From an uncultured Gemmatimonadota bacterium (lineage in GTDB: Bacteria; SM23-81; DAOVCL01), in contig CAZVGK010000006.1 of assembly GCA_964626665.1 (NCBI GenBank), positions 32,001 through 96,000 on the forward strand: a stretch of DNA of 64,000 bases, read 5' to 3'. Shown here piece after piece: positions 1 through 12,862 of the stretch. The position numbers were made by a program, and so were the translations under genes. A model generated the notes under the pieces. That model saw only the letters and a program-made list of their open reading frames with translations. It was not told the origin of the DNA and did no database searches. The first letter of the stretch is position 1, and every line of letters starts with the position of its first letter.

Positions 1-245
1 TTTTCAATCCCGACGATAGGTTCTAAGTAGCAGAGCCCTACACACCCCACTTCAATCAGATGGGCATCTATCTTCTTGGCTTCCAGCTCACCCCTAAAGG
101 CCTGCAGCACCTCCAGCGCTCCGGCTGCCCGCCCACAGGTTGCTGCTCCCACCAGCACTCGGGGTCTTCTGCTGTGATCTGCCTTCCATTGGGAGTTGAT
201 CTGTTCCCTTATCTTTCCCAGATTTTTTTCATTGGTTAGCGGCAT
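1..245 (-). CDS. NuoF/HydB-like flavoprotein subunit, N-terminal part (runs off window start)
   Basis: Not in ORF track. Manual translation from ATG at 245 gives MPLTNEKNLGKIREQ...VLVGAATCGRAAGALEV...EVGCVGLCYLEPIVGIE, the thioredoxin-like 2Fe-2S N-terminus also seen in the 5484..8651 protein; starts 3 nt after a NuoE-like gene. Confidence 0.8.
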   Translation of the reverse strand, partial: MPLTNEKNLGKIREQINSQWKADHSRRPRVLVGAATCGRAAGALEVLQAFRGELEAKKIDAHLIEVGCVGLCYLEPIVGIE

Positions 246-248
246 AGG

Positions 249-731
249 TCAATCGTATTTGTTAAGTATCTTCATTGCCTTGAAAGGGGTCATCTTTCCA
301 TAGACCTTGTCATCGACCACCACGACCGGGGCTAAGGCGCAACAGCCAAAGCAAGCAATCCTTTCCAGGCTGAACCTGCCATCTTCTGTAGTTCCTCCTG
401 GTTTTACCTGCAGTTCGTCCTGCACAAAATCGAGGATCCTGGCTCCCCCCCGCACATGGCAGGCCGTTCCCAGGCAGACCTTGATTGTGTGCCTTCCCGG
501 TTTGGTGAAGCGAAATTGGGAGAAGAAGGTGGCTACACCAAAGACCTCGCTTGCTGATAGCTTAAGATGGTCCGCTACCTGACCCACGGCCTCCTGGGAT
601 ATGTAGCCAAGCCTCTCTTGCACCTCCTGGAGAAGGGGGATTAATTCACTGTTTTCTCTCTTGTGCTTTGAGAGGATGTTCTTAAACCCCTCCTGCGGAG
701 ACTTTCCCTGTTTTATTGGGTGTTTAATCAT
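249..731 (-). CDS. nuoE: NuoE/HydC-family 2Fe-2S subunit
   Basis: LIPLLQEVQ...GVATFFSQF, CLGTACHVRG and ACFGCCALAP motifs. Symbol is family-level; context suggests a soluble HydABC-type complex rather than complex I. Confidence 0.9.
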   Translation of the reverse strand: MIKHPIKQGKSPQEGFKNILSKHKRENSELIPLLQEVQERLGYISQEAVGQVADHLKLSASEVFGVATFFSQFRFTKPGRHTIKVCLGTACHVRGGARILDFVQDELQVKPGGTTEDGRFSLERIACFGCCALAPVVVVDDKVYGKMTPFKAMKILNKYD

Positions 732-740
732 AGGTTGCTG

Positions 741-1193
741 TCAATCATAGGATAGGCGAGTCTTCTCATCCGCCAGTAGTGGCCCAATAATTTTCTGCCA
801 TTCTGGGGAGTCCCATGTCCCCAATTTTGTATGCACAGTGAAGTATTTCTGGGGAATTGGGTGCGTCCCCACAACCACCTCTATCCCATATTTTGCCTTA
901 ATGAATTCTTGAAAATAGGTTGTGTAGGGACAGGGGGGGTATCCGACAACCAGGCCGGTGGCCAGGTGAATCACCTGCACCCCATTTTTGGCCATCTCCT
1001 CGGGGGCATATTCAATGTTCCCCCCCGGGCAGCCGCCACAGGTTGTATATCCAACCAATTCCAACTCCTTGGCCTCTTTATAGATGCTAAATGCCCCTTC
1101 CCTATTCTGTAGAGATCTAAAACACTTGCCCCCAGCGCACATCCGGTAACGGTCACAGATGATAATCCCGATTTTAATTTTGTTTTTCATCAT
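741..1193 (-). CDS. CGGC domain-containing protein
   Basis: IGIIIC...CAGGKC, TCGGCPG, HLATG, CP and VVGTH motifs. Confidence 0.88.
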   Translation of the reverse strand: MMKNKIKIGIIICDRYRMCAGGKCFRSLQNREGAFSIYKEAKELELVGYTTCGGCPGGNIEYAPEEMAKNGVQVIHLATGLVVGYPPCPYTTYFQEFIKAKYGIEVVVGTHPIPQKYFTVHTKLGTWDSPEWQKIIGPLLADEKTRLSYD

Positions 1194-1328
1194 TGTCTCT
1201 TTCTATATAAAAATTGCGAAACGAAAAAATGCAAAGGGGAAAAGTAAAAATCATTATTGCTTCCTCTGTAAGGTAACATCTCGTCTGTCACTTTGCCTTT
1301 TTTCCCGATCTATCGGGACAATTTACCA

Positions 1329-1386
1329 TTGCTGGCTGCAAAACTTGACACAAAATTTAAGAAGTTGCCTTATGAAGCCAGCTAGT
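1329..1386. repeat. 58-bp MITE-like element, copy 1 (copy 2 at 48250..48307)
   Basis: TTGCTGGCTGCAAA...AAGAAGTTGCCTTATGAAGCCAGCTAGT with imperfect terminal IR (GCTGGCT/AGCCAGC); same length and ends at 48250. Confidence 0.7.
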
Positions 1387-1454
1387 ATGATTAGACCGAG
1401 CCAAAAGGCGAGACTATCTGTGTCAAAGGCACTTCTGCGACCCGTTTTTGTTTC

Positions 1455-1544
1455 ACTTAGCGTCTTGCGGGTATGAGAAGTCCAAGCGAAGCGAGGATTT
1501 GGGCGGAGTGCCGAAGGCACGAAGCCAGATAAGCCCTGTTATAA
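1455..1544 (-). mobile_element. attC-like integron cassette recombination site (degenerate)
   Basis: Minus strand just after the protease stop: TTATAAC-AGGGCTTAT...GTGCCTTCGGCAC...CCCAAATCC...ATACCCGCAAGAC-GCTAAGT. A near-complementary core GTTATAC lies upstream of the gene pair at 2209..2215. Confidence 0.6.
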
Positions 1545-1556
1545 GCCATTCCGCCG

Positions 1557-1955
1557 TCATTCCTCAAAATCAATCCACCCATTTCTTTCATCGAAGATTA
1601 TCCGAAATCTCTCAAATATGCCCATTCTTCCCATAAGCATCGGCACTTCTTCTACTAATGCCCACGCTATCCTTATTTTCAACCTTTTGCCATTCAACAG
1701 CAAAGTAACCCCTTTGAGAATATAGGGAACCCCTGCTCCTGAAACACCTTTAACCTCTTGAACGGCATCTTCTTTCTCCTGCTTAAAGCCAAGAGCTCTG
1801 CCAAAACGAAAGGGTATCATTGAAACATCAGCACCTGAATCTACGTACATTGGTATTTCCACAGCAAAACTATCCTTTTCCAAAATCACCTCTGCTACAG
1901 GGCGAAGAACAACCCCTAAAGTACTTCTTTCTTCTCTGAACCTTTGACGTATCAT
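1557..1955 (-). CDS. Retropepsin-like (clan AA) aspartyl protease family protein
   Basis: YVDSGADVS catalytic motif and C-terminal LMGRMGIF. Confidence 0.8.
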   Translation of the reverse strand: MIRQRFREERSTLGVVLRPVAEVILEKDSFAVEIPMYVDSGADVSMIPFRFGRALGFKQEKEDAVQEVKGVSGAGVPYILKGVTLLLNGKRLKIRIAWALVEEVPMLMGRMGIFERFRIIFDERNGWIDFEE

Positions 1956-2146
1956 AATACCAACATCCTTTCCTCAGGCACCTTTGCCACAAAGGGTCTT
2001 TCATGAGGATATTCTTGCCGTACTCTATCGAGCATTTGCTCAATATTCTCACCCTTTGCCACCACTTTGCCATTTACAATGATCACATACTTGTTCTCTA
2101 AACCTGTTTTATCGAGTGTTACATACACATCGAAATTCTTGCTCAT
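1952..2146 (-). CDS. DUF5678-like small protein
   Basis: KYVIIVNGKVVAKGEN motif; AAGGAGG RBS; ATGA overlap with the protease gene. Confidence 0.75.
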   Translation of the reverse strand: MSKNFDVYVTLDKTGLENKYVIIVNGKVVAKGENIEQMLDRVRQEYPHERPFVAKVPEERMLVL

Positions 2147-2221
2147 GGCTCTACCTCCTTTACATTAAGAATTGGCATCAAGCTTTTTAATACCAACGGT
2201 GGAATTGCGTATAACATCCTA

Positions 2222-2369
2222 TTACCATTTCCCATCCCTCAAATATTGATCAATTGCTACCTTCGCCACCTTGCCTACGCCTATAGTCAGGATCAGGGTT
2301 GCCGCCCCGGTGACGATGTCCCCTCGCAAATACCCTCCTCTTGCTGGTCTTCCCTCCCTTTTCGTTAGC
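2222..2369 (-). pseudogene. Frameshifted C-terminal remnant of a GltD/NfnB-type oxidoreductase
   Basis: Manual translation GKTSKRRVFA/(frameshift)/GDIVTGAATLILTIGVGKVAKVAIDQYLRDGKW* parallels TSILGVFSGGDVATGPATVIRAVAAGERGAVAIDQYLR in the 5484..8651 protein; no start codon. Confidence 0.75.
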
Positions 2370-2965
2370 TACCCTTCAATTTTGACCACAGGGAGATCCT
2401 CTTTCGATTTGACCTTAATCGTCTCTCTGTGGTCTCATTCTTGGGGGAAACCCAGGAGAGGAAATAAACCCAAAATATGCAGGAACCACAGATGAACACA
2501 GCGCGGCAAAGCCGCAATAAAACAATTCACCGCAAAGTCGCAAAGAACGCAGAGTTTAAAGAAAAAGACTCACCACGGATAAACACGGAGTAACACGGAA
2601 AGAAAATAGAGATTACCGTCAACTAATCGTTTTATTTCATTTCCCTTTTGCTTTTTATTTCCTCTGCGATCTTAGAGGCTTTGCGGTTGACACAAAAAAC
2701 TTTGCCAAAAAAACAAGATCTTGCAAGATTGTATTACAGATTTTCACAGATTATATAAGTATCTTCAAGAATATAGGCTTTCACCTTTTAAGTGGAAAAG
2801 GGGGTCAAACTCAATTTTTAAGAGCTCTTCGTTTAGAATATCTCGTGGTTTCCTAACGCATAATCTGGGATAAACTCTTCAGAACATCCCTCAACCCAAT
2901 ATTTCTCAGGCAGAATGTAAAACTTAAGGAGCTAAATATCAAGGGAAAATTTTCATAATCCCCCA

Positions 2966-2998
2966 TAAAAGCGAATGGCCTGAGGATTCAGGCCATTC
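2966..2998 (-). terminator. Probable intrinsic terminator after the glutamate synthase-family gene
   Basis: GAATGGCCTGA/TCAGGCCATTC stem followed on the minus strand by GCTTTTA. Confidence 0.55.
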
Positions 2999-3033
2999 TG
3001 GGAAATGGGATGGGCATTTGCGGGATTCAGTAG

Positions 3034-4614
3034 TTAGTCGTTGAGTATCTCCTCTGCCTCCCTTTTGTCTACATCCATAATATAGTGGATTCCGCTGATC
3101 TCTGCTGCTTCCTTAGTGAGGGCGGCGATGTCGTCCCGGGTGATATACTCCAGGGTAAACTTTCTCTCCCCAGCCATGATCTGCCGTAGGCCCTGGGATA
3201 ACCTTTGCATATAGGTGTAGAGCCCCAATGCCCCCGTAGGGATATCGTAGAACCTATCTCCCAATTGCTCCTTTAACTCTGGAGCAGAGATAAAGATCTC
3301 CTCGGCCTTTGTCCCGAACCTTTCGATATAAACCGGGACCTGACCTTCATCGATCCTCTTACCAATGGTCTTACCGACCATGGCAGCAGTGAGGGGCGCT
3401 CTGGCCATACCAATGAGCTTGAAGTAGGGAGCCCCTAAGGCCAGACCTTTAAAGATCTGATCTTCAAAGGCAAAGCCTCCGGCGATGGCGATGTCCGGCA
3501 CATACTTACCCTTCTTGGCAAGTTTGTCGACATACTGGTAGAGTAGCGAATGGAGTTCGATTCCTGGAACCCCCCATTCGTTCATCATCCGCCAGGGGCT
3601 CATCCCTGTTCCTCCACCGGCAGCATCTACGGTGAGAAGGTCGATCTTTCCCTCAGAGGCGAACTTCACTGCTCTGGCTAAATCCACAGGACGATAGGCT
3701 CCCGTTTTCAGGAAGACATACTTGGCCCCTCCCTCTCTAAGTTCCTGAACCCTCTTCAAGAAGCTCTCCTTCTCCACCATCCCTACCCGGGAATGCCTCT
3801 CAAACTCTTTGAAGCTTCCACTTTCAAAGGCCTTGATCACATTGGGATCCTCTGGATCGGGGAGAACGATATATCCCCTCTTCTTGAGCAACTGGGCCTT
3901 CTTGAGGTCCTTGATCTTGACCTCACCGCCGATGTCCTTGGCCCCCTGGCCCCATTTGAGCTCCACAGCCTCCACTCCGAGCTTTGAGATGGCATACTCT
4001 TGAACGCCGAGCTTGGTGTCTTCGATATTGGCCTGGACGATGATGGCCCCGTATCCGTCCTGCTGCCATTGCCTGTAGAGGTTGATCCTCCATTCAAGAT
4101 CGGGAGAGTGGACGATCTTACCGTTCTTTATTTCACTATCCACATCCATTCCGCAGACATTTTCCCCAATGGTCAAGGGAATCCCAGCAAGGGCCGCGCC
4201 AATGGCCAGCCCTTCCCAGTTGATTTTGGCGATGTTGGTAGAGCCCAATCCGGGAATAATTAAGGGAAGTTTCACTTTGATTCCCTTATCATGGCCAATG
4301 GCTGTTTCAATTTTGACATTTCGGAAAAGAGCCTTGTTGCTGTCGGCTTCGATACCATAAGCACCAGCGGCAGTGCCCAGGATGGTGAAATGGGAAAGAT
4401 CAACGGGGTATTCCTTTTCGCTAGCCGTGGTGATAATACCAAAGGGTTGAGGATAGATAACCTCTGTGCCCCTGTAGGCAGACTTGCCCACCTCACACAT
4501 CCCGATGCATCCGTCGACACAGGTTGTACAGAGACCGCTGAGCTTATTGATTGACTCATCCGTGCGATTCTTCGTCAGGGTGGCAGCGCTGGTGTTGATT
4601 CTTGAGTATGACAT
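3034..4614 (-). CDS. FMN-binding glutamate synthase family protein (stand-alone synthase domain)
   Basis: N-terminal CxxCxxxCxxxC, ELKWGQGAK and DAAGGGTGMSP motifs; no amidotransferase domain; GGAGG RBS. Confidence 0.9.
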   Translation of the reverse strand: MSYSRINTSAATLTKNRTDESINKLSGLCTTCVDGCIGMCEVGKSAYRGTEVIYPQPFGIITTASEKEYPVDLSHFTILGTAAGAYGIEADSNKALFRNVKIETAIGHDKGIKVKLPLIIPGLGSTNIAKINWEGLAIGAALAGIPLTIGENVCGMDVDSEIKNGKIVHSPDLEWRINLYRQWQQDGYGAIIVQANIEDTKLGVQEYAISKLGVEAVELKWGQGAKDIGGEVKIKDLKKAQLLKKRGYIVLPDPEDPNVIKAFESGSFKEFERHSRVGMVEKESFLKRVQELREGGAKYVFLKTGAYRPVDLARAVKFASEGKIDLLTVDAAGGGTGMSPWRMMNEWGVPGIELHSLLYQYVDKLAKKGKYVPDIAIAGGFAFEDQIFKGLALGAPYFKLIGMARAPLTAAMVGKTIGKRIDEGQVPVYIERFGTKAEEIFISAPELKEQLGDRFYDIPTGALGLYTYMQRLSQGLRQIMAGERKFTLEYITRDDIAALTKEAAEISGIHYIMDVDKREAEEILND

Positions 4615-4797
4615 CTCTCCTCCTTCTTCAAAGTAATGAGAATTGAGAATTGAGAAAAAATTAAAAGATTTTTGAATTTTTGCTACTCACTTCTGCTTCT
4701 TATTTTTCCCATATATGCTGTAAGCTATGTGTCTTTTTCCATATCTCTAAAACCTCAAAACTTTTTGTTTTCATTCTCGGTTTTTACTACTCAATTC

Positions 4798-5490
4798 TCA
4801 CTTCTGTTTCTTCTCTTCTGCCTCTTTTAGAAGACAGGCTGCACAGGGGTCCATAGAGCATTGAGCGTCCTCATATATATCAAGGCACGGGTAGCTCAAA
4901 TTTTGACAACCGCCGCAAAGGGTTGTGGGTGGTTGGGACCCCTGACACCTAAGCTGAACGACCGGACAGATGTACATACAGGCGCCACAGGTTCGGCAAA
5001 CATCCGACTTAATATCGAAAGGAGTGGCAATCTTCCTATCTTTCCCCCTGTTCACAAATCCTATTGCTTTTGCTCCCATCTGCTCCTCGCACATCCGAGT
5101 GCAAAGGCCGCAGAGGATACAGTCGTCATTTCTGGGTTTGAATCGAACCTTAGTTACCCCAAGTTTGGAGGCAAGATCCTGAATTGTCTTTGAGTTCGGA
5201 GAGGCGGCAACGAGAAGTTCTACCAGCATCTTCCGTGCCTTGATCACCCGCTTCGAATGGGTCCGCACCTCCAATCCTTCCTCTACCGGGTAGGTACACG
5301 AGGTTACCAATCGGCTTTTTTGAGGATCTGAGCCAATTTCTACCACGCAGAGCCTACAGGCTCCATAAGGGGAGAGTCCCTCGTGGTAACAGAGAGTGGG
5401 GATGGGAATTCCATAGAAGCGGCAAACCTCTAACAGAGTTTGCCCCTCTTCTGCCTGAACATCTATACCGTTCAATCTCAAATTTACCAT
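4798..5490 (-). CDS. NuoG/HydA N-terminal-like Fe-S subunit with Cys-rich tail
   Basis: IPTLC...GACRLCVVE...TSC, CILCGLCTRMC, CRTCGACMYICP. Start placed at ATG 5490 (MVNLRLNG), overlapping the upstream stop. Confidence 0.85.
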   Translation of the reverse strand: MVNLRLNGIDVQAEEGQTLLEVCRFYGIPIPTLCYHEGLSPYGACRLCVVEIGSDPQKSRLVTSCTYPVEEGLEVRTHSKRVIKARKMLVELLVAASPNSKTIQDLASKLGVTKVRFKPRNDDCILCGLCTRMCEEQMGAKAIGFVNRGKDRKIATPFDIKSDVCRTCGACMYICPVVQLRCQGSQPPTTLCGGCQNLSYPCLDIYEDAQCSMDPCAACLLKEAEEKKQK

Positions 5491-8400
5491 GTTTTTACTT
5501 CCTCGATGGCTTTCAGTGACTTCTCCCACTGATGAAATTTCTCCAAATCTACCTCCAGATCACACCGGAGACATCGTTTTGCCTCCTTCATAGCCATCTG
5601 TGCTGTGTATCCCAGATCCACTTCCTTGAAGTTGTCCTTCCTGGCGTCCACTGAAAGGGTAGGACCCTGGACCTGACCATAGGGCACGGGTTCGGCCTCC
5701 AGATCGTAGTAGGTATCTACATGTTTGGTGACCCTCCAAGGATACACTCGGGTCCTATCAGGTCTCAAGTACTGGTCAATGGCTACGGCTCCTCGCTCTC
5801 CTGCTGCCACAGCCCGGATGACCGTTGCTGGGCCCGTGGCCACATCCCCACCGGAGAAGACCCCAAGAATCGATGTCATCCCCCATTTATCAGTCTTGAT
5901 AGTGCCGTCCTTGTTCGTTACCACCTCCAGGCCGGTGAAAAGCTCCCTTATGTCCGCAAATTCCCCAATGGCAGGGATGACGGTGTCTACCTCCATCCGA
6001 TAGGTTTTGTCGGGTTGAGGGATCGGTCTCCTTCGACCACTGCTGTCAAACTCACCCAACCGCATGCGGACCACCTCAACCCCATTGACCCGATTTTCCC
6101 TCTCAATGATCTTCGTAGGAGCTACCAAGAACTCAAGCCTAACGCCTTCCTGAAGAGCCTGTTCAATCTCCTCTTCGAAGGCTGGCATTTCCTGTCGAGT
6201 TCGTCGGTAGAGAATCGTCACCTCCTCGGCGCCCAGTCGGAGTGCAGTCCGTGCTGCATCAATGGCCGTATTGCCTCCACCCACCACAACAATCCGCTTG
6301 CCCATCTTCACCCGCCGCTTCAAGTTTACATCCCGCAAGAAATCTACACCCTGTACTACCCCCCGAAGCTCCTCTCCGGGAATTCCCATTCTCCTATCCC
6401 CGTACATTCCCACAGCCACATAGAAGGCCTGGTATCCTTCATCGAAAAGCTCCAAGAGCTTCACATCCTTGCCGACCTGGGTGTATAAGTTGATCTCTAC
6501 CCCCATAGCCTCGATACGTTCAATCTCCTGTTGCACCACCCTCTTGGGGAGCCTATTTTCCGGGATAGCTATGGCCAGCATCCCGCCCGCCACAGGCAAT
6601 GCCTCAAAAACAGTCGGTTGGTAACCCAAACGGGCCAGAAAGTAGGCGCACGAGAGGCCAGCGGGACCTGCACCGACGATTCCCACTTTGTGGGGAAGCT
6701 TCTCCTTTGGGGTACCTCCCGGAGGAAGGATCAAATTCTCCTGTTCGTAGTCTCCGATGAACCGTTTCAACATCCGGATAGCCACAGGCTCATCAATCTG
6801 ATTCCGCCTGCACTTGGACATACAGGGATGGTCGCACACCCGACCACAGATTGAGGGAAAGGGATTGGTGTCCAGAGCCAGCTCGAGGGCCTCCTGGAAT
6901 CGCCCTTCCCCAATGAGTGATACATATCCAGGGACATTCATCCCAGCAGGACAGGCATTCTGGCAAGGAGAGATGAAGAGCTCCCGGCAGACACCAGCGG
7001 GACATTTCCGCTGCTTGATGTGGGCCTCATACTCGTCCCGGAAGTAACGCAAGGTAGAAAGCACAGGGTTTGAAGCTGTCTGCCCAAGGCCACACTGGGA
7101 GGTATCCTTGACCACCTGGGCCAGCTCTTCCAGAAGTTCCAGATCTCCTATCTTTCCCCTTCCCTCCGTGATGTCGGTGACGATCTCCAGCATCCGGCGA
7201 ATTCCCTCTCGACAAGAAAAACACTTGCCGCAGGATTCATCCTGGAGGAAATTCAGGAAGTACTTGGCCACATCCACCATACAGGTATCCTCATCCATGA
7301 CAACCATGCCACCAGATCCCATGATGGAGCCTGCCTCGGCCAGCTTCTCATAGTCTACCGGGAGATTCAGAAGATCCTTCGGGATACATCCACCAGAGGG
7401 TCCCCCTGTCTGAACTGCTTTGAATTGTTTGCCCTCGGGAATGCCACCGCCAATGTCGAAGATGATCTCCCCCAAACTCATCCCCATAGGTACTTCCACC
7501 AGACCGGTGTTGTTTATCTTGCCCACCAAGGAAAATATCTTTGTCCCCTTGCTCTTCTCCGTTCCAATGCTGGAGTACCAATCTGCCCCTTTAGTTATGA
7601 TCAGCGGCACATTGGCCCAGGTCTCTACATTATTGATGTTGGTTGGCTTGCCCCAAAGGCCCTTTATAGCCGGGAATGGTGGTCGCTGCCTCGGTTCTCC
7701 CCTTTTCCCCTCGATGGAGGCAATGAGGGCGGTTTCCTCACCACAGACAAAGGCACCTGCTCCCCTGCTTATCCGAATGTCAAAGTCAAAACCTGAGCCA
7801 AGGATATTTTTTCCTAACAGCCCGCATTCTCTGGCCTGTTCCAGAGCAATAGTCACATTCTTAACAGCCAGGGGATACTCATTCCGAACATAGATTATTC
7901 CCTCATTTGCACCAATGGCATAGGCTCCAATGACCATTCCCTCTAAGATGCTGTGCGGGTTTCCCTCCAAGAGGCTCCTGTCCATATAGGCGCCTGGATC
8001 TCCCTCATCTGCATTACAGATGATATATCTTTTGTCCCCTTTGGCCCTGCGGCAGAAGTCCCATTTGTATCCTGTGGGAAACCCAGCCCCTCCTCTTCCT
8101 CTTAGTCCGGATTTCTTCACCTCTTCTATGATTCCCTCTGGATTCATCTTACTAAGGGCCTTAGCCAACGCCTCATATCCTCCGACGGCTATATAATCTG
8201 TGATCTTAGTGGGGTCAACAAGGGGATTGTTACCAAGGATAAAACGCTGTTGTTTTCTATAAAAGGGTATCTCCTTCTCGTGGACAAACTTCTCTCCCGT
8301 GTTGGGGTCAGTGTAGAGCAGCCGTTCGATCACCTTTTTTCCCAGGACAGTCTTTGTTATAATCTCCCCTGCATCCTCTGGTTTTAAATGCACATAGAAG

Positions 8401-8651
8401 ATTCCCTCTGGCTGGAGGATCATATTGGGTTCAACTTGGCAAAAGCCGTGACAGCCCGTTACCTTGATGACGACCTTGTCCTCTAAATTGCGTCTTTTGA
8501 TCTCTTCCTTAAATGCCTGCACAACCTTGTCAGATCCTCGTGCCAGGCCACAGGTGCCTGAGGATATGGTAATGCAAGGGATTTGAGGAATCCCCTTGAT
8601 AATGGCTTCCCTTAGTTCCTCAAGTTGTTCGGGAGACGCTATCCTCTTCAT
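5484..8651 (-). CDS. NuoF/HydB-like FMN/NADH subunit fused to a GltD/NfnB-like FAD/NAD(P)H domain
   Basis: SGLRGRGGAGFPTG, CNADEGDPG, GAGAFVCGEETAL, ESCGKCFSCREG; then PCQNACP, CGRVCDHPC, GAGPAGL, GGGNTAID, EAKRCLRC. Confidence 0.93.
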   Translation of the reverse strand: MKRIASPEQLEELREAIIKGIPQIPCITISSGTCGLARGSDKVVQAFKEEIKRRNLEDKVVIKVTGCHGFCQVEPNMILQPEGIFYVHLKPEDAGEIITKTVLGKKVIERLLYTDPNTGEKFVHEKEIPFYRKQQRFILGNNPLVDPTKITDYIAVGGYEALAKALSKMNPEGIIEEVKKSGLRGRGGAGFPTGYKWDFCRRAKGDKRYIICNADEGDPGAYMDRSLLEGNPHSILEGMVIGAYAIGANEGIIYVRNEYPLAVKNVTIALEQARECGLLGKNILGSGFDFDIRISRGAGAFVCGEETALIASIEGKRGEPRQRPPFPAIKGLWGKPTNINNVETWANVPLIITKGADWYSSIGTEKSKGTKIFSLVGKINNTGLVEVPMGMSLGEIIFDIGGGIPEGKQFKAVQTGGPSGGCIPKDLLNLPVDYEKLAEAGSIMGSGGMVVMDEDTCMVDVAKYFLNFLQDESCGKCFSCREGIRRMLEIVTDITEGRGKIGDLELLEELAQVVKDTSQCGLGQTASNPVLSTLRYFRDEYEAHIKQRKCPAGVCRELFISPCQNACPAGMNVPGYVSLIGEGRFQEALELALDTNPFPSICGRVCDHPCMSKCRRNQIDEPVAIRMLKRFIGDYEQENLILPPGGTPKEKLPHKVGIVGAGPAGLSCAYFLARLGYQPTVFEALPVAGGMLAIAIPENRLPKRVVQQEIERIEAMGVEINLYTQVGKDVKLLELFDEGYQAFYVAVGMYGDRRMGIPGEELRGVVQGVDFLRDVNLKRRVKMGKRIVVVGGGNTAIDAARTALRLGAEEVTILYRRTRQEMPAFEEEIEQALQEGVRLEFLVAPTKIIERENRVNGVEVVRMRLGEFDSSGRRRPIPQPDKTYRMEVDTVIPAIGEFADIRELFTGLEVVTNKDGTIKTDKWGMTSILGVFSGGDVATGPATVIRAVAAGERGAVAIDQYLRPDRTRVYPWRVTKHVDTYYDLEAEPVPYGQVQGPTLSVDARKDNFKEVDLGYTAQMAMKEAKRCLRCDLEVDLEKFHQWEKSLKAIEEVKTW

Positions 8652-8654
8652 TTT

Positions 8655-9131
8655 TTACTCTCTTCCTAAGAGTGAAACGACCTTTTGGGTGCTCATTTGC
8701 CCATAATAGGTGCCGTCTTTGACCACAATTGGCCCAATGGCACAACATCCCAGGCAGTTGACGGTCTCCAGGGTATATTCTCTGTCTTGGGTTGTCTCTC
8801 CCGGTTTAATTTTCAGCTTTCTCTGCAGTTCATCCACGATCCGAGGACTACCTCTCACATGACAGGCAGTGCCAAGGCAGACGGTTATTAGGTGTTTCCC
8901 CCTCGGTTTGAGACTGAAGGACTTATAAAAAGTGACTACCCCATAAACATCAATCAGAGGAAGTTCCAACCCTTCGGCAACCCTACGGATAACCTCCCGG
9001 GGAAGCCAGTTATACAAGGCTTGAACATCTTGCAGAATGGGAATGAGAAATTCCTTTCTCCTGCCGTAGGAACTCAATACCGCATCAACTTGCTTGAGAT
9101 CAATTTCCATAGTAGGTTCTTTCTGAAGCAT
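8655..9131 (-). CDS. nuoE: NuoE/HydC-family 2Fe-2S subunit
   Basis: LIPILQDVQ, CLGTACHVRG, NCLGCCAIGP; family-level symbol; start could be the ATG at 9110. Confidence 0.9.
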   Translation of the reverse strand: MLQKEPTMEIDLKQVDAVLSSYGRRKEFLIPILQDVQALYNWLPREVIRRVAEGLELPLIDVYGVVTFYKSFSLKPRGKHLITVCLGTACHVRGSPRIVDELQRKLKIKPGETTQDREYTLETVNCLGCCAIGPIVVKDGTYYGQMSTQKVVSLLGRE

Positions 9132-9133
9132 TT

Positions 9134-9541
9134 TTATCTCCCCCGAAAGAATACAGAGTAAGTGTTGTAAAACTCCTTTAGAGCCGTCTCGATCTTCTCA
9201 AACTCAATTAGGTGCTTTTTGCAGCCCCGACGGGTGCAAATTTCCACAACTCCGCCCCTGGCAAGCCACATAGGGGCCATAGGTGCGCCGCATTGCTCGC
9301 AGGTCCTGGTGGACTTAAGCTCGGCTTCACAGAAGGGGCAGAAAAACCTAACTACCGTCCCTTGAGAGATGGGATACTCTGTCTCAACCTCGTAGCTTCC
9401 ATAAAGGGCACTTAATCGAACCCATCCCCGCTTCCCATCAAACTCCGCGACAATTCCGACACTGGGGTGGCCATCTATCTTGTGTTCGTTATCCATCAAT
9501 GACTGTTTACAATGTGGACAAATAACTTTCAAAGGGATCAT
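9134..9541 (-). CDS. Cys-rich hypothetical protein (probable metal-binding accessory subunit)
   Basis: CPHC, CPFC, CEQC, CTRRGCKKH; GAGGAG RBS; 2-nt gap to the NuoE-like gene. Confidence 0.75.
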   Translation of the reverse strand: MIPLKVICPHCKQSLMDNEHKIDGHPSVGIVAEFDGKRGWVRLSALYGSYEVETEYPISQGTVVRFFCPFCEAELKSTRTCEQCGAPMAPMWLARGGVVEICTRRGCKKHLIEFEKIETALKEFYNTYSVFFRGR

Positions 9542-9783
9542 AAGTTATCTCCTCAAGATTTTGTGCTACTTTAACATTTCGGAATTTTTAAGAAATTCTG
9601 AAATGTCGGGGGTTATTTGAAGTCCTGCACTTATGCATAAGTGCAGGATTCAATCATGACAGCGGAGCACCAGAGGGTCGGTGCTCCGCCAGCTCACACC
9701 GAAATTAAGTTAGCGACCGACGGAGCTACTATTGGGGACATTAAATAGCGCTTGTCCGAAAAGTACGTAGCTTCGTCTTTTGA

Positions 9784-9886
9784 TGTCATTGCGAGCGACT
9801 GTAAGGAGCGAAGCAATCTGTTTAATATCAGGAGATTGCTTCGGCCAGTTCCCTCACTTGCGCTCGGAACAAGCCTCGCAATGACA
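9784..9886. repeat. TGTCATTGCGAG...GCAATCT palindromic element family
   Basis: Two arms in inverted orientation; the right arm is the near-exact reverse complement of 31532..31586. Further arms at about 35522 and 36891. Confidence 0.75.
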
Positions 9887-9924
9887 CTATGCTGAAAGAA
9901 TAGACGCTTGTAGCTAAAGATGAA

Positions 9925-11205
9925 CTAAGCGTAAAGCCCTCGGCTCTCGGCAGCCTGGGTCACCCTTTGGATGCCGACGATGAATGCCGCCGTCCGCATT
10001 TTCACCTTATATTCTTTAGCGGTTGCCATAACGGCGTTGAAGGCATTGACCATCACTCTTTCCAAATCCTCGTTCACCCGCTCCTCCGTCCAGTAGTACC
10101 CCATCCGATTCTGTACCCACTCGAGATAGGAGACCGTCACCCCTCCTGCGTTGCAAAGAATATCCGGGATAATGTGAACTCCCTTCTTGTAGAGAATAGC
10201 ATCGGCCTCAGGAGTTGTGGGACCGTTGGCCCCTTCAGCAAGCGCTTTTGCCTTGATTCGATCTGCATTTTCCTCTGTAATCTGCTCCTCAAGGGCTGCA
10301 GGAATGAGAATATCCACATCCTCTTCCAAAAGCTTCATAGGGTTATCGTACTTCTTGACCTTACCCATTTTCTCGAAGCCTTTTAGCGTCTTGGTCAACG
10401 TTTTGTGGGTATACTCGATGGCTTCTTTCATCGGGATTCCTTCTTTACTGTAAAAACCACCGTCGATATCGGAAATGGCCACAATCCTGGCTCCCATTTC
10501 CTCCAGGATCTCTCCTGCGAAAGAACCGACGTTCCCAAAGCCCTGAATGGCAACCGTCGCTTCGCTTAAATCTATTCCTATATGTTTGGCCATCTCCCGC
10601 ACGCAAATTGCCAGCCCTCTTGAAGTGGCCTTCTTCCTTCCTTCAGACCCGCACATCTCCAGAGGCTTGCCAGTAATCACCGCTGGAAGGAACCTCTTGT
10701 GGTGCATCGAATAGGTGTCCATCATCCAGCCCATGATCTGGGAGGTCGTGTTCACATCCGGGGCGGGTATGTCCTGATCCGGCCCGAAGAGATCCGACAT
10801 CTCCGCCATATATCTCCGGGAGACACGCTCCAGCTCATGATTGGAAAGATTCCTCGGATCTACTATCACGCCTCCCTTCCCACCACCAAAAGGCACGCCT
10901 ACTACCGCACATTTGTAGGTCATCCAGAAGGCAAGTGCCTTCACTTCATCCACCGTTACATTCTGGTGAAATCGAATCCCACCCTTTGCCGGTCCACGGA
11001 TGACCGAGTGTTGAACTCGGTAGCCCTTGAAAATTTGGATAGAACCGTCGTCCATCCGAATCGGCAGATTTACCTCTGTCACCCTGCGGGGTTCCTTGAT
11101 CAAGGCAATCTGGTTCTCCGTGAGATGGAGTATTTTAGCTGCCTGATCAAACTGCAGCATTGCCATCTGGAAAGGGGTGAGCTTTTTGGTGATCTTCTCA
11201 GCCAT
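9925..11205 (-). CDS. gdhA: Glu/Leu/Phe/Val dehydrogenase (glutamate dehydrogenase)
   Basis: GPAKGGIRF, GGGKGG, DIPAPDV, QGFGNVG, EGANGP, NAGGVTVSY; start at ATG 11205 after GAGGAGG. Confidence 0.92.
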   Translation of the reverse strand: MAEKITKKLTPFQMAMLQFDQAAKILHLTENQIALIKEPRRVTEVNLPIRMDDGSIQIFKGYRVQHSVIRGPAKGGIRFHQNVTVDEVKALAFWMTYKCAVVGVPFGGGKGGVIVDPRNLSNHELERVSRRYMAEMSDLFGPDQDIPAPDVNTTSQIMGWMMDTYSMHHKRFLPAVITGKPLEMCGSEGRKKATSRGLAICVREMAKHIGIDLSEATVAIQGFGNVGSFAGEILEEMGARIVAISDIDGGFYSKEGIPMKEAIEYTHKTLTKTLKGFEKMGKVKKYDNPMKLLEEDVDILIPAALEEQITEENADRIKAKALAEGANGPTTPEADAILYKKGVHIIPDILCNAGGVTVSYLEWVQNRMGYYWTEERVNEDLERVMVNAFNAVMATAKEYKVKMRTAAFIVGIQRVTQAAESRGLYA

Positions 11206-11252
11206 TTCGGCTACCTCCTCCGAAATTGAAGTTTGGCTAAAACTATAAAGCA

Positions 11253-11281
11253 AAAATAATATAGTGACTCATCACTGTCAA
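11253..11281 (-). promoter_or_regulatory. sigma70-type promoter of gdhA
   Basis: TTGACA-17 nt-TATTTT on the minus strand. Confidence 0.6.
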
Positions 11282-11515
11282 GATTTATTTTTTTCGATTT
11301 GGGAAAAATTTCACAAGAACCCTGTCTTTTGTGGCTTGACAGAGGGGGAAAAGATTTGTAATTTCTTAGAGGCAATTCCAGATCCAAAGGGACCTTTTCC
11401 ATGTTCTTTGTGGATGTTATCATCCACAAAAAGACTTTCTCCGTCAGGGCAGGAGCCCTGGCAGCACAGAGAGGAGATAATGAGTAGCCCACTTTATAAA
11501 AGATCTACCCCCTAA

Positions 11516-12862
11516 GTGACCAGGGCAAAAAGGGATTTGACCCAGGGGAGCATTCCCCGGAATCTCATAACCCTGGCCCTGCCTCTGATCGCCGCCAACC
11601 TCTTGCAGACCACCTTTAACATAGTGGATATGCTCTTCGTAGGAAGGTTAGGGCCCCAGGCCATTGCTGCCATCTCCTTAGCTGGGGTGCTGTTGATGTT
11701 CTTGATGACCATTGCCATTGGCCTGGCTACTGGAACTCAGGCGATGATCTCCCGTTTCATCGGTGCCCAAAGGCCAAAGGAGGCGGAGGCGGTAGCCATC
11801 CAATCCCTCCTTCTGGGCCTCTTCTCCTCATTTCTGCTCTCCATCGTTGGTTTTTTTCTCTCACCTCTTCTCCTTGAACTGGTAGGGGCTAAGGGTGAGG
11901 TTTTCGTTTTAGGTAATGGTTATCTGCGGATTATGTTCTCTGGCATCTACACGGTTTTCCTCCTTTTCCTGGTCAGTGCCATCTTCCAGGGGGTGGGGAA
12001 TACGGTTACCCCAATGAAGATTCTCATCTTTTCTACCATCTCCAATATAGTCTTGGATCCTCTCCTTATTTTTGGCCTATGGTATTTCCCCCGCTGGGGG
12101 GTGAATGGGGCCGCTATTGCTACCGTCACGGCCAGAGGCCTGGGTATGATTGTAGGCATATACCTCCTCTTTAAGGGTAGATTGGGTATTCACCTCCATC
12201 TGAGGAAGATTCAGATGGATCTGGGGATGATGTGGCGGATCATCCGGATTGGGCTGTTTGCCTCCATCCAGGCTATCTTAAGGAATATCTCTCTGATAGT
12301 TATTGCTCGCATTGTTGCTTCCTTTGGCACCTTTGCCATCGCTGCCTATGGTATAGGAATGAGAGTGAGGATGGTGGTGATGATGCCCGGTTTCGGTTTG
12401 GCGGCAGCCACCGCGGTTTTGGTGGGCCAGAACCTGGGGGCAAAGAATCCGCGGAGGGCAGAGAAGAGCGGACTTTTCTCCTGCCTCTATTATGGTCTCT
12501 TTATGATCCTTGCCGGTGGTCTCTTCTTCGGCTTCGCCCATCCCATTGTCTCTGCCTTCAATTCACAGCCCGATGTGGTCAGGATAGGCGGTAACTATTT
12601 GCATATCCTCACTTTGAGTTTTGTCTTTTTAGGGACTTCTATTGTCTTGAGCAGGGCGATGAATGGAGCGGGGGATACCATCTCACCGATGGTCATCACT
12701 GGCTTTACCCTTCTTATCCTGCGTATTCCCCTTTGTCTTCTTCTCTCCTATAGTCTGGAAACAACCGGCATCTGGGCAGGGCTGGCCCTCTCCGATCTGG
12801 CCAATGGACTGATCACCTTTGGCTGGTTTCAACAGGGCAGATGGAAGAGGAGGAAGGTGTAG
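11516..12862 (+). CDS. MATE family efflux transporter
   Basis: DLTQGSI...LALP, NIVLDPLLIFG, GAAIAT, GQNLGAK; about 12 hydrophobic segments. Confidence 0.93.
   Translation: MTRAKRDLTQGSIPRNLITLALPLIAANLLQTTFNIVDMLFVGRLGPQAIAAISLAGVLLMFLMTIAIGLATGTQAMISRFIGAQRPKEAEAVAIQSLLLGLFSSFLLSIVGFFLSPLLLELVGAKGEVFVLGNGYLRIMFSGIYTVFLLFLVSAIFQGVGNTVTPMKILIFSTISNIVLDPLLIFGLWYFPRWGVNGAAIATVTARGLGMIVGIYLLFKGRLGIHLHLRKIQMDLGMMWRIIRIGLFASIQAILRNISLIVIARIVASFGTFAIAAYGIGMRVRMVVMMPGFGLAAATAVLVGQNLGAKNPRRAEKSGLFSCLYYGLFMILAGGLFFGFAHPIVSAFNSQPDVVRIGGNYLHILTLSFVFLGTSIVLSRAMNGAGDTISPMVITGFTLLILRIPLCLLLSYSLETTGIWAGLALSDLANGLITFGWFQQGRWKRRKV

Follow-up and report, generated by a model that had tools for sequence, protein, structure and literature searches.

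Which reaction is served by an operon that joins the subunits of a Bfu-type enzyme to a flavoprotein resembling part of glutamate synthase? The question is raised by a 64,000-nucleotide stretch of DNA, here called the window, from an uncultured Gemmatimonadota bacterium (assembly GCA_964626665.1, contig CAZVGK010000006.1, positions 32,001 to 96,000). Six co-oriented open reading frames (ORFs) span positions 3034-11253 of its minus strand, as read from the ORF listing together with Pfam and NCBIfam profiles. The first encodes a glutamate dehydrogenase (GDH, gdhA). After a spacer follow genes for a double zinc-ribbon protein, a NuoE-like subunit, a fusion of NuoF with GltD, a short iron-sulphur (Fe-S) subunit, and a flavin mononucleotide (FMN) protein of 526 residues, here named FMN526. 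An earlier note, made from the sequence alone, had listed these six co-oriented genes at the correct place and had proposed a possible electron-bifurcating glutamate redox system.

We judge the operon to be real and its conservation strong; it appears to encode a Bfu variant with a GltB-like catalytic flavoprotein. The five genes after gdhA may specify one soluble flavo-Fe-S enzyme of the Bfu type, in which the GltB-like FMN526 would most likely act on 2-oxoglutarate and ammonium or on glutamate; we regard the chances of this as evenly balanced. The enzyme is uncharacterised. The module probably ties glutamate or ammonium metabolism to the pools of NADH, NADPH and ferredoxin.

Conservation of the gene set and its Bfu-type core

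A genomic survey with one genome per species yielded 595 loci with a relative of FMN526, and the best 80 of these were examined by tblastn. In every one of the 76 loci whose flank reaches 800 nt or more, the Fe-S gene is the next gene upstream of FMN526, and NuoF lies upstream in 68 of the 71 loci with at least 2.7 kb. Among the 57 loci with at least 5 kb of flank, NuoF was found in 56, NuoE in 54, a fused GltD in 35 and the zinc ribbon in 27; the apparent misses are L026, L048 and L049, the last of which holds a NuoE-zinc-ribbon ORF below the coverage filter. The gene set is kept far beyond the source genome, and the lack of co-conservation that the earlier note had named as grounds against a common system is clearly not what is seen.

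The homologues of FMN526 are 74-90% identical, and nearly all are 524-530 residues long. Their labels include Aminicenantes, Aerophobetes, WOR-3, Bacteroidota, Thermoplasmata, Theionarchaea and Halobacteriota, and carriers of the module are also named Zixibacteria, Planctomycetota (including the anammox bacterium Scalindua), ANME archaea and syntrophs. FMN526 is the most conserved protein of the set, with 70-80% identity between bacterial and archaeal phyla, which implies that the protein is strongly constrained and that its gene has often been transferred. Only 190 proteins, many of them fragments, reach E <= 1e-30 in a library clustered at 50% identity, where the nearest full-length representatives are 40-56% identical; such few distant relatives suggest a compact family. 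On a 5.3-kb Zixibacteria contig (L005:700-4486) the Fe-S gene and FMN526 are immediately preceded by a GDH gene instead of NuoF, and the module there may have been reduced or rearranged.

The assignment of the NuoE, NuoF and short NuoG-like proteins to the HydABC/Bfu type, also made in the earlier note, was borne out by their solved relatives, by the ligands of the B2 site, and by an Ala/Met pair of the NADH site. Among solved structures the NuoF part is closest to NiFe-HydB (7t2r_B, 1.4e-234), followed by WorB (1.3e-211), NfnB and HydB. The top relatives of NuoE are HydC (7p5h_C, 4.5e-40) and WorC (9mqx_C, 3.3e-39), and that of the Fe-S subunit is WorA (9mqx_A, 5.7e-37, across residues 13-197). 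The alignment of the NuoF part with HydB of Acetomicrobium mobile (7t2r_B, 4.4e-234) is gap-free over 525 residues, so that residues can be transferred position by position. The B2-site positions C438, C476, H525, C531 and C536 of A. mobile HydB correspond to C457, T495, H544, C550 and C555 here. According to PMC9304861, the B2-site His is missing from non-bifurcating homologues, Thr stands in place of C476 in about two-thirds of BfuB sequences, and F182, A202 and M204 are Bfu-specific residues of the NADH/FMN site. A221 and M223 of the NuoF part align with A202 and M204, and the F182 of that paper has no placeable counterpart, index 182 of the solved chain being Lys. At the N-terminus the alignment with HydB starts at residue 29 and NCBIfam 2Fe-2S ferredoxin models cover residues 32-112; the Cys residues in this part are C26, C34, C67 and C71, with the first pair spaced C-x7-C versus C-x4-C in 7t2r_B.

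Across 25 orthologues the Fe-S subunit has invariant Cys for one [2Fe-2S] cluster and for two C-x2-C-x2-C-x3-C 4Fe-4S motifs. These are followed by a C-terminal stretch with seven invariant Cys and one nearly invariant one, which lies outside the WorA alignment. This stretch is a candidate docking or cluster site for FMN526, because the C-terminal end of WorA is described as recruiting its catalytic partner (PMC12318220). Interface prediction for the BfuA-like subunit and FMN526 from paired alignments gave a score of 0.01, which we take as evidence for neither outcome.

Most of the features by which PMC9304861 defines the three Bfu subunits are present: NuoE is a NuoE-like BfuC with the C1 [2Fe-2S] cluster, the NuoF part has the FMN/NADH domain and B1 [4Fe-4S] cluster of BfuB, and the Fe-S subunit has the A1 [2Fe-2S] and A2 [4Fe-4S] clusters of BfuA. 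The C-terminal 2[4Fe-4S] domain of BfuB (B3 and B4; IPR017896 in PMC9304861) is absent in the window, and the B subunit is filed as a Bfu variant rather than a canonical member for that reason. Residues 1-555 of the fusion form a BfuB-like NuoF with sites for FMN, NADH and 4Fe-4S clusters, and residues 556-1055 a GltD/NfnL-like part with two 4Fe-4S clusters, flavin adenine dinucleotide (FAD) and NADPH. The solved relatives of the latter are NfnA (9bov_A, 2.4e-125; 9n5u_A, 1.1e-116) and NfnL (5jca_L, 3e-95).

This end of the B subunit has been exchanged repeatedly. In unfused orthologues the H-x5-C-x4-C motif precedes two C-x2-C-x2-C-x3-C motifs at the end of the protein, the canonical BfuB end, and such a ferredoxin-like end occurs in 23 of 62 orthologous B subunits and in the other NuoF of the genome. 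For a phylogeny, NuoF cores were trimmed after the B2 motif; they came from those of 74 clustered ORFs that have at least 590 residues and a recognisable motif, one ORF per locus. The 63 rows comprise the window, the other NuoF of the genome as outgroup, and 61 loci. On this quick tree, which is midpoint-rooted and has SH-aLRT (Shimodaira-Hasegawa-like approximate likelihood ratio test) values as its sole support, the 39 fused and the 23 ferredoxin-type forms are intermixed. By parsimony 13-14 end changes are needed, at least 6 of them forced by starred branches, and none of 500 shuffles of the 'fused' label gave a number as low as observed. The ferredoxin-like and GltD ends may be read as functionally interchangeable at one point of the electron path, in which case NADP(H) would here stand where relatives have ferredoxin. 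The NuoF-GltD fusion as such has published precedent, as PMC11216029 describes predicted archaeal hybrid hydrogenases in which HydB carries a GltA-type domain as a proposed low-potential acceptor site.

The zinc-ribbon sequence is part of the same picture. In 26 loci it forms the C-terminal part of a single ORF with NuoE (for example L047:4196-5050), mostly of about 280-340 residues, with a shortened copy in one locus; one of these ORFs has its 2Fe-2S_thioredx match at residues 14-147. It is a separate gene in the window and in a few other loci. The zinc-ribbon protein would thus be a detachable domain of BfuC with two putative Cys4 metal sites. For the NfnABC structure of T. sibiricus, PMC12018979 describes movement of a domain that is likened to the Cys-rich protein, with ferredoxin binding beside it.

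FMN526 and its possible link to glutamate

The AlphaFold model of FMN526 has a predicted local distance difference test (pLDDT) value of 84.6 and a predicted template modelling (pTM) score of 0.88, with low confidence at residues 1-27 and 55-68, and the predicted fold is an FMN-type (beta/alpha)8 barrel. The single Pfam match, to PF01645, is well above the cut-off of 20.4 bits and covers profile positions 185-303 of 369 alone. No amidotransferase, central or GXGXG domain was found by Pfam, in line with the description of the protein as an amidotransferase-less member of the glutamate synthase family in the earlier note. When the FMN-binding half was aligned with E. coli GltB, the score was 64 against 28.4 +/- 4.7 for shuffled sequences, and none of 300 shuffles reached it. 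A K-x-x-Q-G-A-K motif after a barrel strand is common to FMN526 and GltB and is invariant in 25 orthologues. Further collinear GltB-like stretches are invariant in the FMN526 family, namely G-G-T-G-x-S-P and the phosphate-binding strands G-G...L-G-A. A search of the ESM Atlas returned clusters of the protein's own family alone. We class FMN526 as a remote member of the superfamily of GltB FMN domains. The sequence does not reveal its substrate.

The neighbourhood of the module points towards glutamate and nitrogen metabolism. A GDH of at least 38% identity is present in 10 of the 80 loci, each time on the strand of the module, and genes of the ELFV family occur in 13 of 80. The background rate was estimated from 86 ELFV matches in 168.7 Mb (50 module genomes searched, with loci of up to 19.6 kb), and GDH at that identity was found in 9 of the 50 loci versus about 0.5 expected, or about twenty-fold over chance. 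GDH-family genes are strongly enriched beside the module. Other recurrent neighbours are NtrC-type sigma-54 regulators (17 loci), histidine kinases (15), glutamine synthetase (9) and a small protein (10); the remaining ones are lineage-specific synteny. The small protein, of about 90-150 residues and with no Pfam match, lies between the NtrC-type regulator and NuoE (L043, L046, L047, L050, L063, L066, L070, L073, L076 and L077; for example L066:3627-3971). ORFs of about 910-1045 residues with an ELFV domain, of the large-GDH type, occur in eleven of the 50 module genomes, several of them Aminicenantes, and in one genome such an ORF (G020:C3:560022-560810) is encoded opposite to FMN526, about 330 nt away from the end of that gene.

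Several results weigh against glutamate as the substrate, or against the reading of the operon as a bifurcating enzyme that uses it. Foldseek returned glycolate oxidase, lactate monooxygenase, glutamate synthase (GltS), mandelate oxidase, flavocytochrome b2 and type-2 isopentenyl diphosphate (IPP) isomerase at similar E-values, with a template modelling (TM) score of 0.51 on the query for GltS 1ofd, the highest listed. In VIA-align, flavocytochrome b2, glycolate, lactate and mandelate oxidases, and type-2 IPP isomerase tie at Z 25-26 over about 300 residues. The comparison, made with a predicted model, fails to discriminate the family of FMN526; the match to alpha-hydroxy-acid enzymes is itself not discriminating because type-2 IPP isomerase scores alike. 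A phmmer search of solved structures gave nothing at E <= 1, and a profile of the FMN526 family had de novo triosephosphate isomerase (TIM) barrels as its top matches there, with GltS at E = 0.11. Alignment by hhalign with E. coli GltB or with four GltB FMN domains covers residues ~317-496 only, at 28-62% probability. The substrate-side half of the GltB barrel holds the 2-oxoglutarate site, and residues 101-300 of FMN526 scored 32 against residues 801-1010 of E. coli GltB, with 31.7 +/- 5.2 for shuffles, 146 of 300 of which reached that score. The resemblance to glutamate synthase put forward in the earlier note thus holds for the FMN-binding half and not for the substrate-side half. Positions aligned with the [3Fe-4S] Cys motif of GltB are not Cys in FMN526; near its N-terminus it has four invariant Cys of its own (C29, C32, C36 and C40). 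In the window, moreover, the B2 motif runs directly into Fer4_20 and Pyr_redox_2, the GltD part, with no ferredoxin-like B3/B4 domain.

The genomic context has its own points on this side: GDH adjacency is confined to a minority of loci, and a genome of the same genus, 97% complete, is without FMN526. The source genome (99.65% complete) has one glutamine synthetase and one GDH, and no match to PF04898, PF01493 or PF00310, which were found in 14, 14 and 13 of 14 control genomes, respectively. A strong GltB central domain was detected in 4 of the 50 module-bearing genomes searched. In one control class, PF04898 (E <= 1e-20) was found in 0 of 121 sampled genomes and FMN526 in 55 of them. Within the window's own phylum FMN526 occurs in 3 of 6 genomes, and PF04898 is above the cut-off in 0 of the 5 others. 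The absence of glutamate synthase (GOGAT) is a lineage trait, because the control class and the window's own phylum lack PF04898 regardless of FMN526, and the module is dispensable within those lineages. The idea that the module replaces GOGAT was ruled out as evidence, as the control class is without GOGAT with or without the module. The link between the module and glutamate is circumstantial.

These results bear most directly on a Bfu-type complex in which FMN526 uses another substrate: a 2-oxo, 2-hydroxy or 2-imino acid (such as 2-hydroxyglutarate, lactate or glycolate, or another amino acid), or an isoprenoid-type substrate. Neighbouring nitrogen genes would then reflect mere pathway proximity. 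The top Z-scores, which fall to alpha-hydroxy-acid oxidases and dehydrogenases and to type-2 IPP isomerase, favour such a substrate, as do the N-terminal half without significant similarity to GltB and the distance of FMN526 from every solved GltS in both the phmmer and the profile search. Alpha-hydroxy-acid oxidases carry a catalytic His/Arg pair on one barrel strand. The corresponding strand of FMN526, as judged by eye, reads D-A-A-G-G-G-T-G-M-S-P and aligns instead with G-G-T-G-A-S-P of GltB. Pfam also gives PF01645 alone, with no FMN_dh match at E <= 0.001, and the enriched neighbours are GDH, glutamine synthetase and NtrC-type regulators rather than 2-hydroxy-acid or isoprenoid genes. We consider another substrate for FMN526 somewhat unlikely. 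Glutamate is the best available reading, with roughly an even chance of being correct.

A second paralogue of FMN526, 44-51% identical and outside any NuoEF context, was seen at L034:1997-3643 and L038:4015-5604 and in genomes G085, G092 and G104 (L091-L093). The L034 copy has a GATase_6/7 gene (61-1440) about 560 nt downstream, and a GAF-ANTAR regulator lies beside the module there; the L038 copy adjoins riboflavin kinase and DHBP synthase, and the three others have regulators and peptidases as neighbours. The paralogue neighbourhoods were rejected as a clue to the role of FMN526, their contexts being inconsistent between loci.

Proposed electron routes and known relatives

From these observations we infer complex formation, substrate, direction and bifurcation as follows, with electron routes modelled on the solved Bfu enzymes as described in PMC12018979 and PMC12318220. 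The enzyme would consist of NuoE as BfuC, with the zinc ribbon as its detachable domain, NuoF-GltD as BfuB, the WorA-like protein as BfuA, and catalytic FMN526 docked on BfuA. The B-subunit FMN would be the site for NADH. One branch would lead by B1 and the clusters of BfuA to FMN526, with its four-Cys cluster and FMN, where a 2-oxo or 2-imino acid would be reduced; most likely this would be 2-oxoglutarate with ammonium, giving glutamate, or the reverse. The other branch would pass through C1, the B2 site and two 4Fe-4S clusters to FAD and NADP(H) in the fused form, and would end at ferredoxin in the unfused forms of other genomes. The net reaction would be 2 NADH + 2-oxoglutarate + NH4+ + NADP+ (or oxidised ferredoxin) <-> 2 NAD+ + glutamate + NADPH (or reduced ferredoxin).

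The couple of 2-oxoglutarate and ammonium with glutamate lies at about -120 mV. This is well above NAD; if 2-oxoglutarate with ammonium is the substrate, NADH would be the donor that is split, with glutamate formation downhill and the reduction of ferredoxin or NADP+ uphill. The potentials given in PMC12318220 are about -280 mV for NAD and -500 mV for ferredoxin. Run in reverse, glutamate oxidation would be pulled by co-oxidising ferredoxin or NADPH. The characterised Bfu enzymes use their third substrate as donor, with NAD as high-potential acceptor, and the proposed enzyme would differ in this respect. That the module represents a new bifurcating class, in which NADH is split between downhill amination of 2-oxoglutarate and uphill reduction of ferredoxin (unfused) or formation of NADPH (fused), is a tentative proposal, and we lean towards doubting it.

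An alternative arrangement would be a linear NAD(P)H- and ammonia-dependent glutamate synthase or dehydrogenase without bifurcation, in which GltD (for NADPH) and NuoF (for NADH) would be alternative entries that pass electrons along the Fe-S chain to FMN526, much as GltB receives them from GltD in ordinary NADPH-GOGAT. Reduction of 2-oxoglutarate and ammonium by NAD(P)H needs no energetic help, which counts in its favour. The B subunit of the window is without a ferredoxin-like domain, and a GltD domain together with a GltB-family FMN subunit resembles the GltBD protomer as described in PMC8097209. It is nevertheless unlikely: the B2-site ligands and the Ala/Met pair are kept, features absent from non-bifurcating homologues according to PMC9304861, the end is ferredoxin-like instead of GltD in 23 of the 62 orthologues, and the adjacent plain GDH already performs the linear reaction. 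A third possibility, a very improbable one, is that transhydrogenation between NADH and NADPH (and ferredoxin) in the manner of NfnABC/Stn is the main activity, and that FMN526 has an accessory or regulatory part. Against this, close as the GltD part is to the NADPH domain of NfnA, NfnABC is described with the GltD-like domain on its A subunit and a ferredoxin domain retained on B (PMC12018979), 22 of the 57 long-flank loci have no fused GltD while BfuA adjoins FMN526 wherever the flank suffices, FMN526 is the most conserved of the set, and an NfnA/NfnB-like pair is already encoded about 20 kb away.

The proposed glutamate-linked Bfu enzyme has relatives in four known systems. WorABCSL of A. 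mobile (9mqx; PMC12318220), a tungsten aldehyde oxidoreductase of the Bfu type, has a BfuBC core and a short BfuA, of about 245 residues in WorA; WorA is described as having no A3 cluster, and its C-terminal end as recruiting a separate catalytic module. That module consists of the tungstopterin subunit WorL and the polyferredoxin WorS, whereas a GltB-family FMN barrel is found here. The C-terminal 45 residues of the Fe-S subunit have no counterpart in the alignment with WorA, and the B subunit of the window ends in GltD and not, like WorB, in a ferredoxin-like domain. NfnABC/StnABC (9bov, 9n5u, 8oh5; PMC12018979) likewise combines a NuoE/NuoF core with a GltD/NfnL-like domain that has two 4Fe-4S clusters. 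As described there, this domain is in the A subunit, as the mid-potential entry, and B keeps B3/B4; in the window, by contrast, GltD follows the B2 motif of the B subunit, an additional FMN subunit is present, and BfuA has only 231 residues.

The archaeal hybrid [FeFe]/[NiFe] hydrogenases of PMC11216029, likened by their description, join a NuoF-like diaphorase to a domain of the glutamate synthase small subunit; unlike the present module they have a hydrogenase as partner, and the complexes are models and not purified. The NADPH-dependent glutamate synthase GltBD (1ea0, 2vdc, 6s6s, 7mfm; PMC8097209) has an FMN barrel with G-G-T-G-x-S-P and Q-G-A-K and a GltD-type donor with NADPH, FAD and two [4Fe-4S] clusters in the same enzyme. 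GDH is a functional neighbour there too, and the title of entry 7mfm names a B. subtilis GltAB-GudB 'counter-enzyme complex'. In contrast to GltBD, FMN526 is without the amidotransferase, central and GXGXG domains and the 3Fe-4S motif and has the N-terminal four-Cys motif instead, and a NuoE/NuoF/BfuA module stands between the pyridine nucleotides and the FMN subunit. A full-text search of the literature, outside which lay the supplementary clade tables of PMC9304861, turned up no account of a NuoEF/Bfu module combined with a GltB-like subunit. The clade of the module could figure among the 18 uncharacterised ones of the 57 clades in PMC9304861, in the main text of which the word 'glutamate' occurs 0 times. 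The search described in that paper required a ferredoxin-type domain in BfuB, so fused forms would be left out.

If glutamate is turned over, the enzyme would be an unrecognised link of nitrogen assimilation or amino-acid breakdown to the NADH, NADPH and ferredoxin pools, and metabolic reconstructions of the energy-limited anaerobes that dominate sediments would change. In the reverse direction, peptide-fermenting and syntrophic anaerobes would oxidise glutamate with NAD+ through co-oxidation of ferredoxin or NADPH. The repeated exchange of the B-subunit end would then be a natural experiment in rewiring the low-potential exit of a Bfu core, and a core with either a ferredoxin-like or a GltD exit in nature bears on the open question of the Bfu bifurcation mechanism.

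Gene map and neighbouring features

Features of the operon and its flanks, with positions in the window.
Feature	Position	Strand	Description
gdhA	9925..11205	-	hexameric-type glutamate dehydrogenase; Pfam ELFV_dehydrog 2.4e-82, ELFV_dehydrog_N 2.9e-60
Double zinc-ribbon protein	9134..9541	-	135 aa, eight Cys; weak Pfam DZR and Zn_ribbon_6, below cut-off
NuoE/HydC/BfuC-like [2Fe-2S] subunit	8655..9131	-	Pfam 2Fe-2S_thioredx 9.8e-50, full length
NuoF::GltD fusion	5484..8651	-	1055 aa; Complex1_51K 5.3e-47, NADH_4Fe-4S 2.4e-33, Fer4_20 1.5e-26, Pyr_redox_2 5.4e-36
His-x5-Cys-x4-Cys, B2 site of bifurcating BfuB	6987..7022	-	aa 544-555, immediately ahead of the GltD domain
Short BfuA-like Fe-S subunit, HoxU/NuoG-N-terminal-like	4798..5490	-	231 aa; Pfam Fer2_4 1.2e-19
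FMN526	3034..4614	-	FMN protein, 526 aa; sole Pfam match PF01645 Glu_synthase, 1.2e-12, 48.1 bits
Terminator-like hairpin closing the operon	2973..2998	-	11-bp stem, 6 G-C pairs, T-rich tail, 36 nt past the FMN526 stop
Sigma-70-like promoter match, 5' of gdhA	11253..11281	-	TTGACA-17-TATTTT, 10/12 positions; consensus match only
gdhA-to-operon spacer	9542..9924		383 nt, several inverted repeats

The genes of the module are closely packed. Only 2 nt separate the zinc-ribbon stop from the start of NuoE, and 3 nt separate NuoE from NuoF; the Fe-S gene begins with an ATG that overlaps TGG-TAA, the end of the fusion. The 183-nt gap 5' of FMN526 is A+T-rich and has a strong ribosome-binding site at its end. 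For gdhA, the ATG at 11205 agrees with the end coordinate of the earlier note, and the ORF list reaches a TTG at 11253. The protein matches the NCBIfam model GdhA_Arch at 3.5e-165, under that model's cut-off, and its gene is the only ELFV-family gene of the genome (one PF00208 match in a whole-genome profile search). The promoter match 5' of it is the best sigma-70-like one within 1000-11600. The enzyme would be functionally linked to the module, yet probably made separately.

The spacer between gdhA and the module has no minus-strand terminator-like site and no sigma-54 consensus. Over the whole window this consensus has 22 matches with at most 2 mismatches versus 24.4 expected, and a strict sigma-54 motif 5' of NuoE was found in merely 3 of 56 other loci. 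The repeats of the spacer (9542-9924) include a perfect palindrome, a hairpin rich in G+C and a long-range inverted repeat; they might act in attenuation, bind regulators or form a small repeat element. No Rfam family was matched at gathering score in window positions 1-12000, which include a stretch of about 1 kb at 1956-3033 with G+C down to 0.41-0.44 and no ORF of at least 80 residues. This stretch separates a 132-residue aspartyl-protease-like ORF (1557-1955) from the operon terminator.

A second NuoE/NuoF-like pair, which the earlier note had listed with the module as starting at 731, exists; it belongs to a separate cluster that runs beyond the window. This cluster (window 3-731 and L082:11605-18731, on G000:C6) encodes a NuoE of 160 residues, a NuoF of 621 residues with the canonical 2[4Fe-4S] domain at its C-terminus, and an FdhA-like molybdopterin subunit of 852 residues with a NuoG-like N-terminus. 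After these come genes for a PyrK/NfnA-like protein of 270 residues and a GltD/NfnB-like one of 465. It looks like a formate-dehydrogenase-type Bfu enzyme beside an NfnAB-type transhydrogenase. Directly 5' of this second NuoE, a 150-residue protein with a CGGC domain (PF08821, 2.3e-29) is encoded at 741-1193 on the minus strand. At the other side of the operon, a MatE-family efflux gene of ordinary appearance lies at 11516-12862 on the plus strand, divergent from gdhA.

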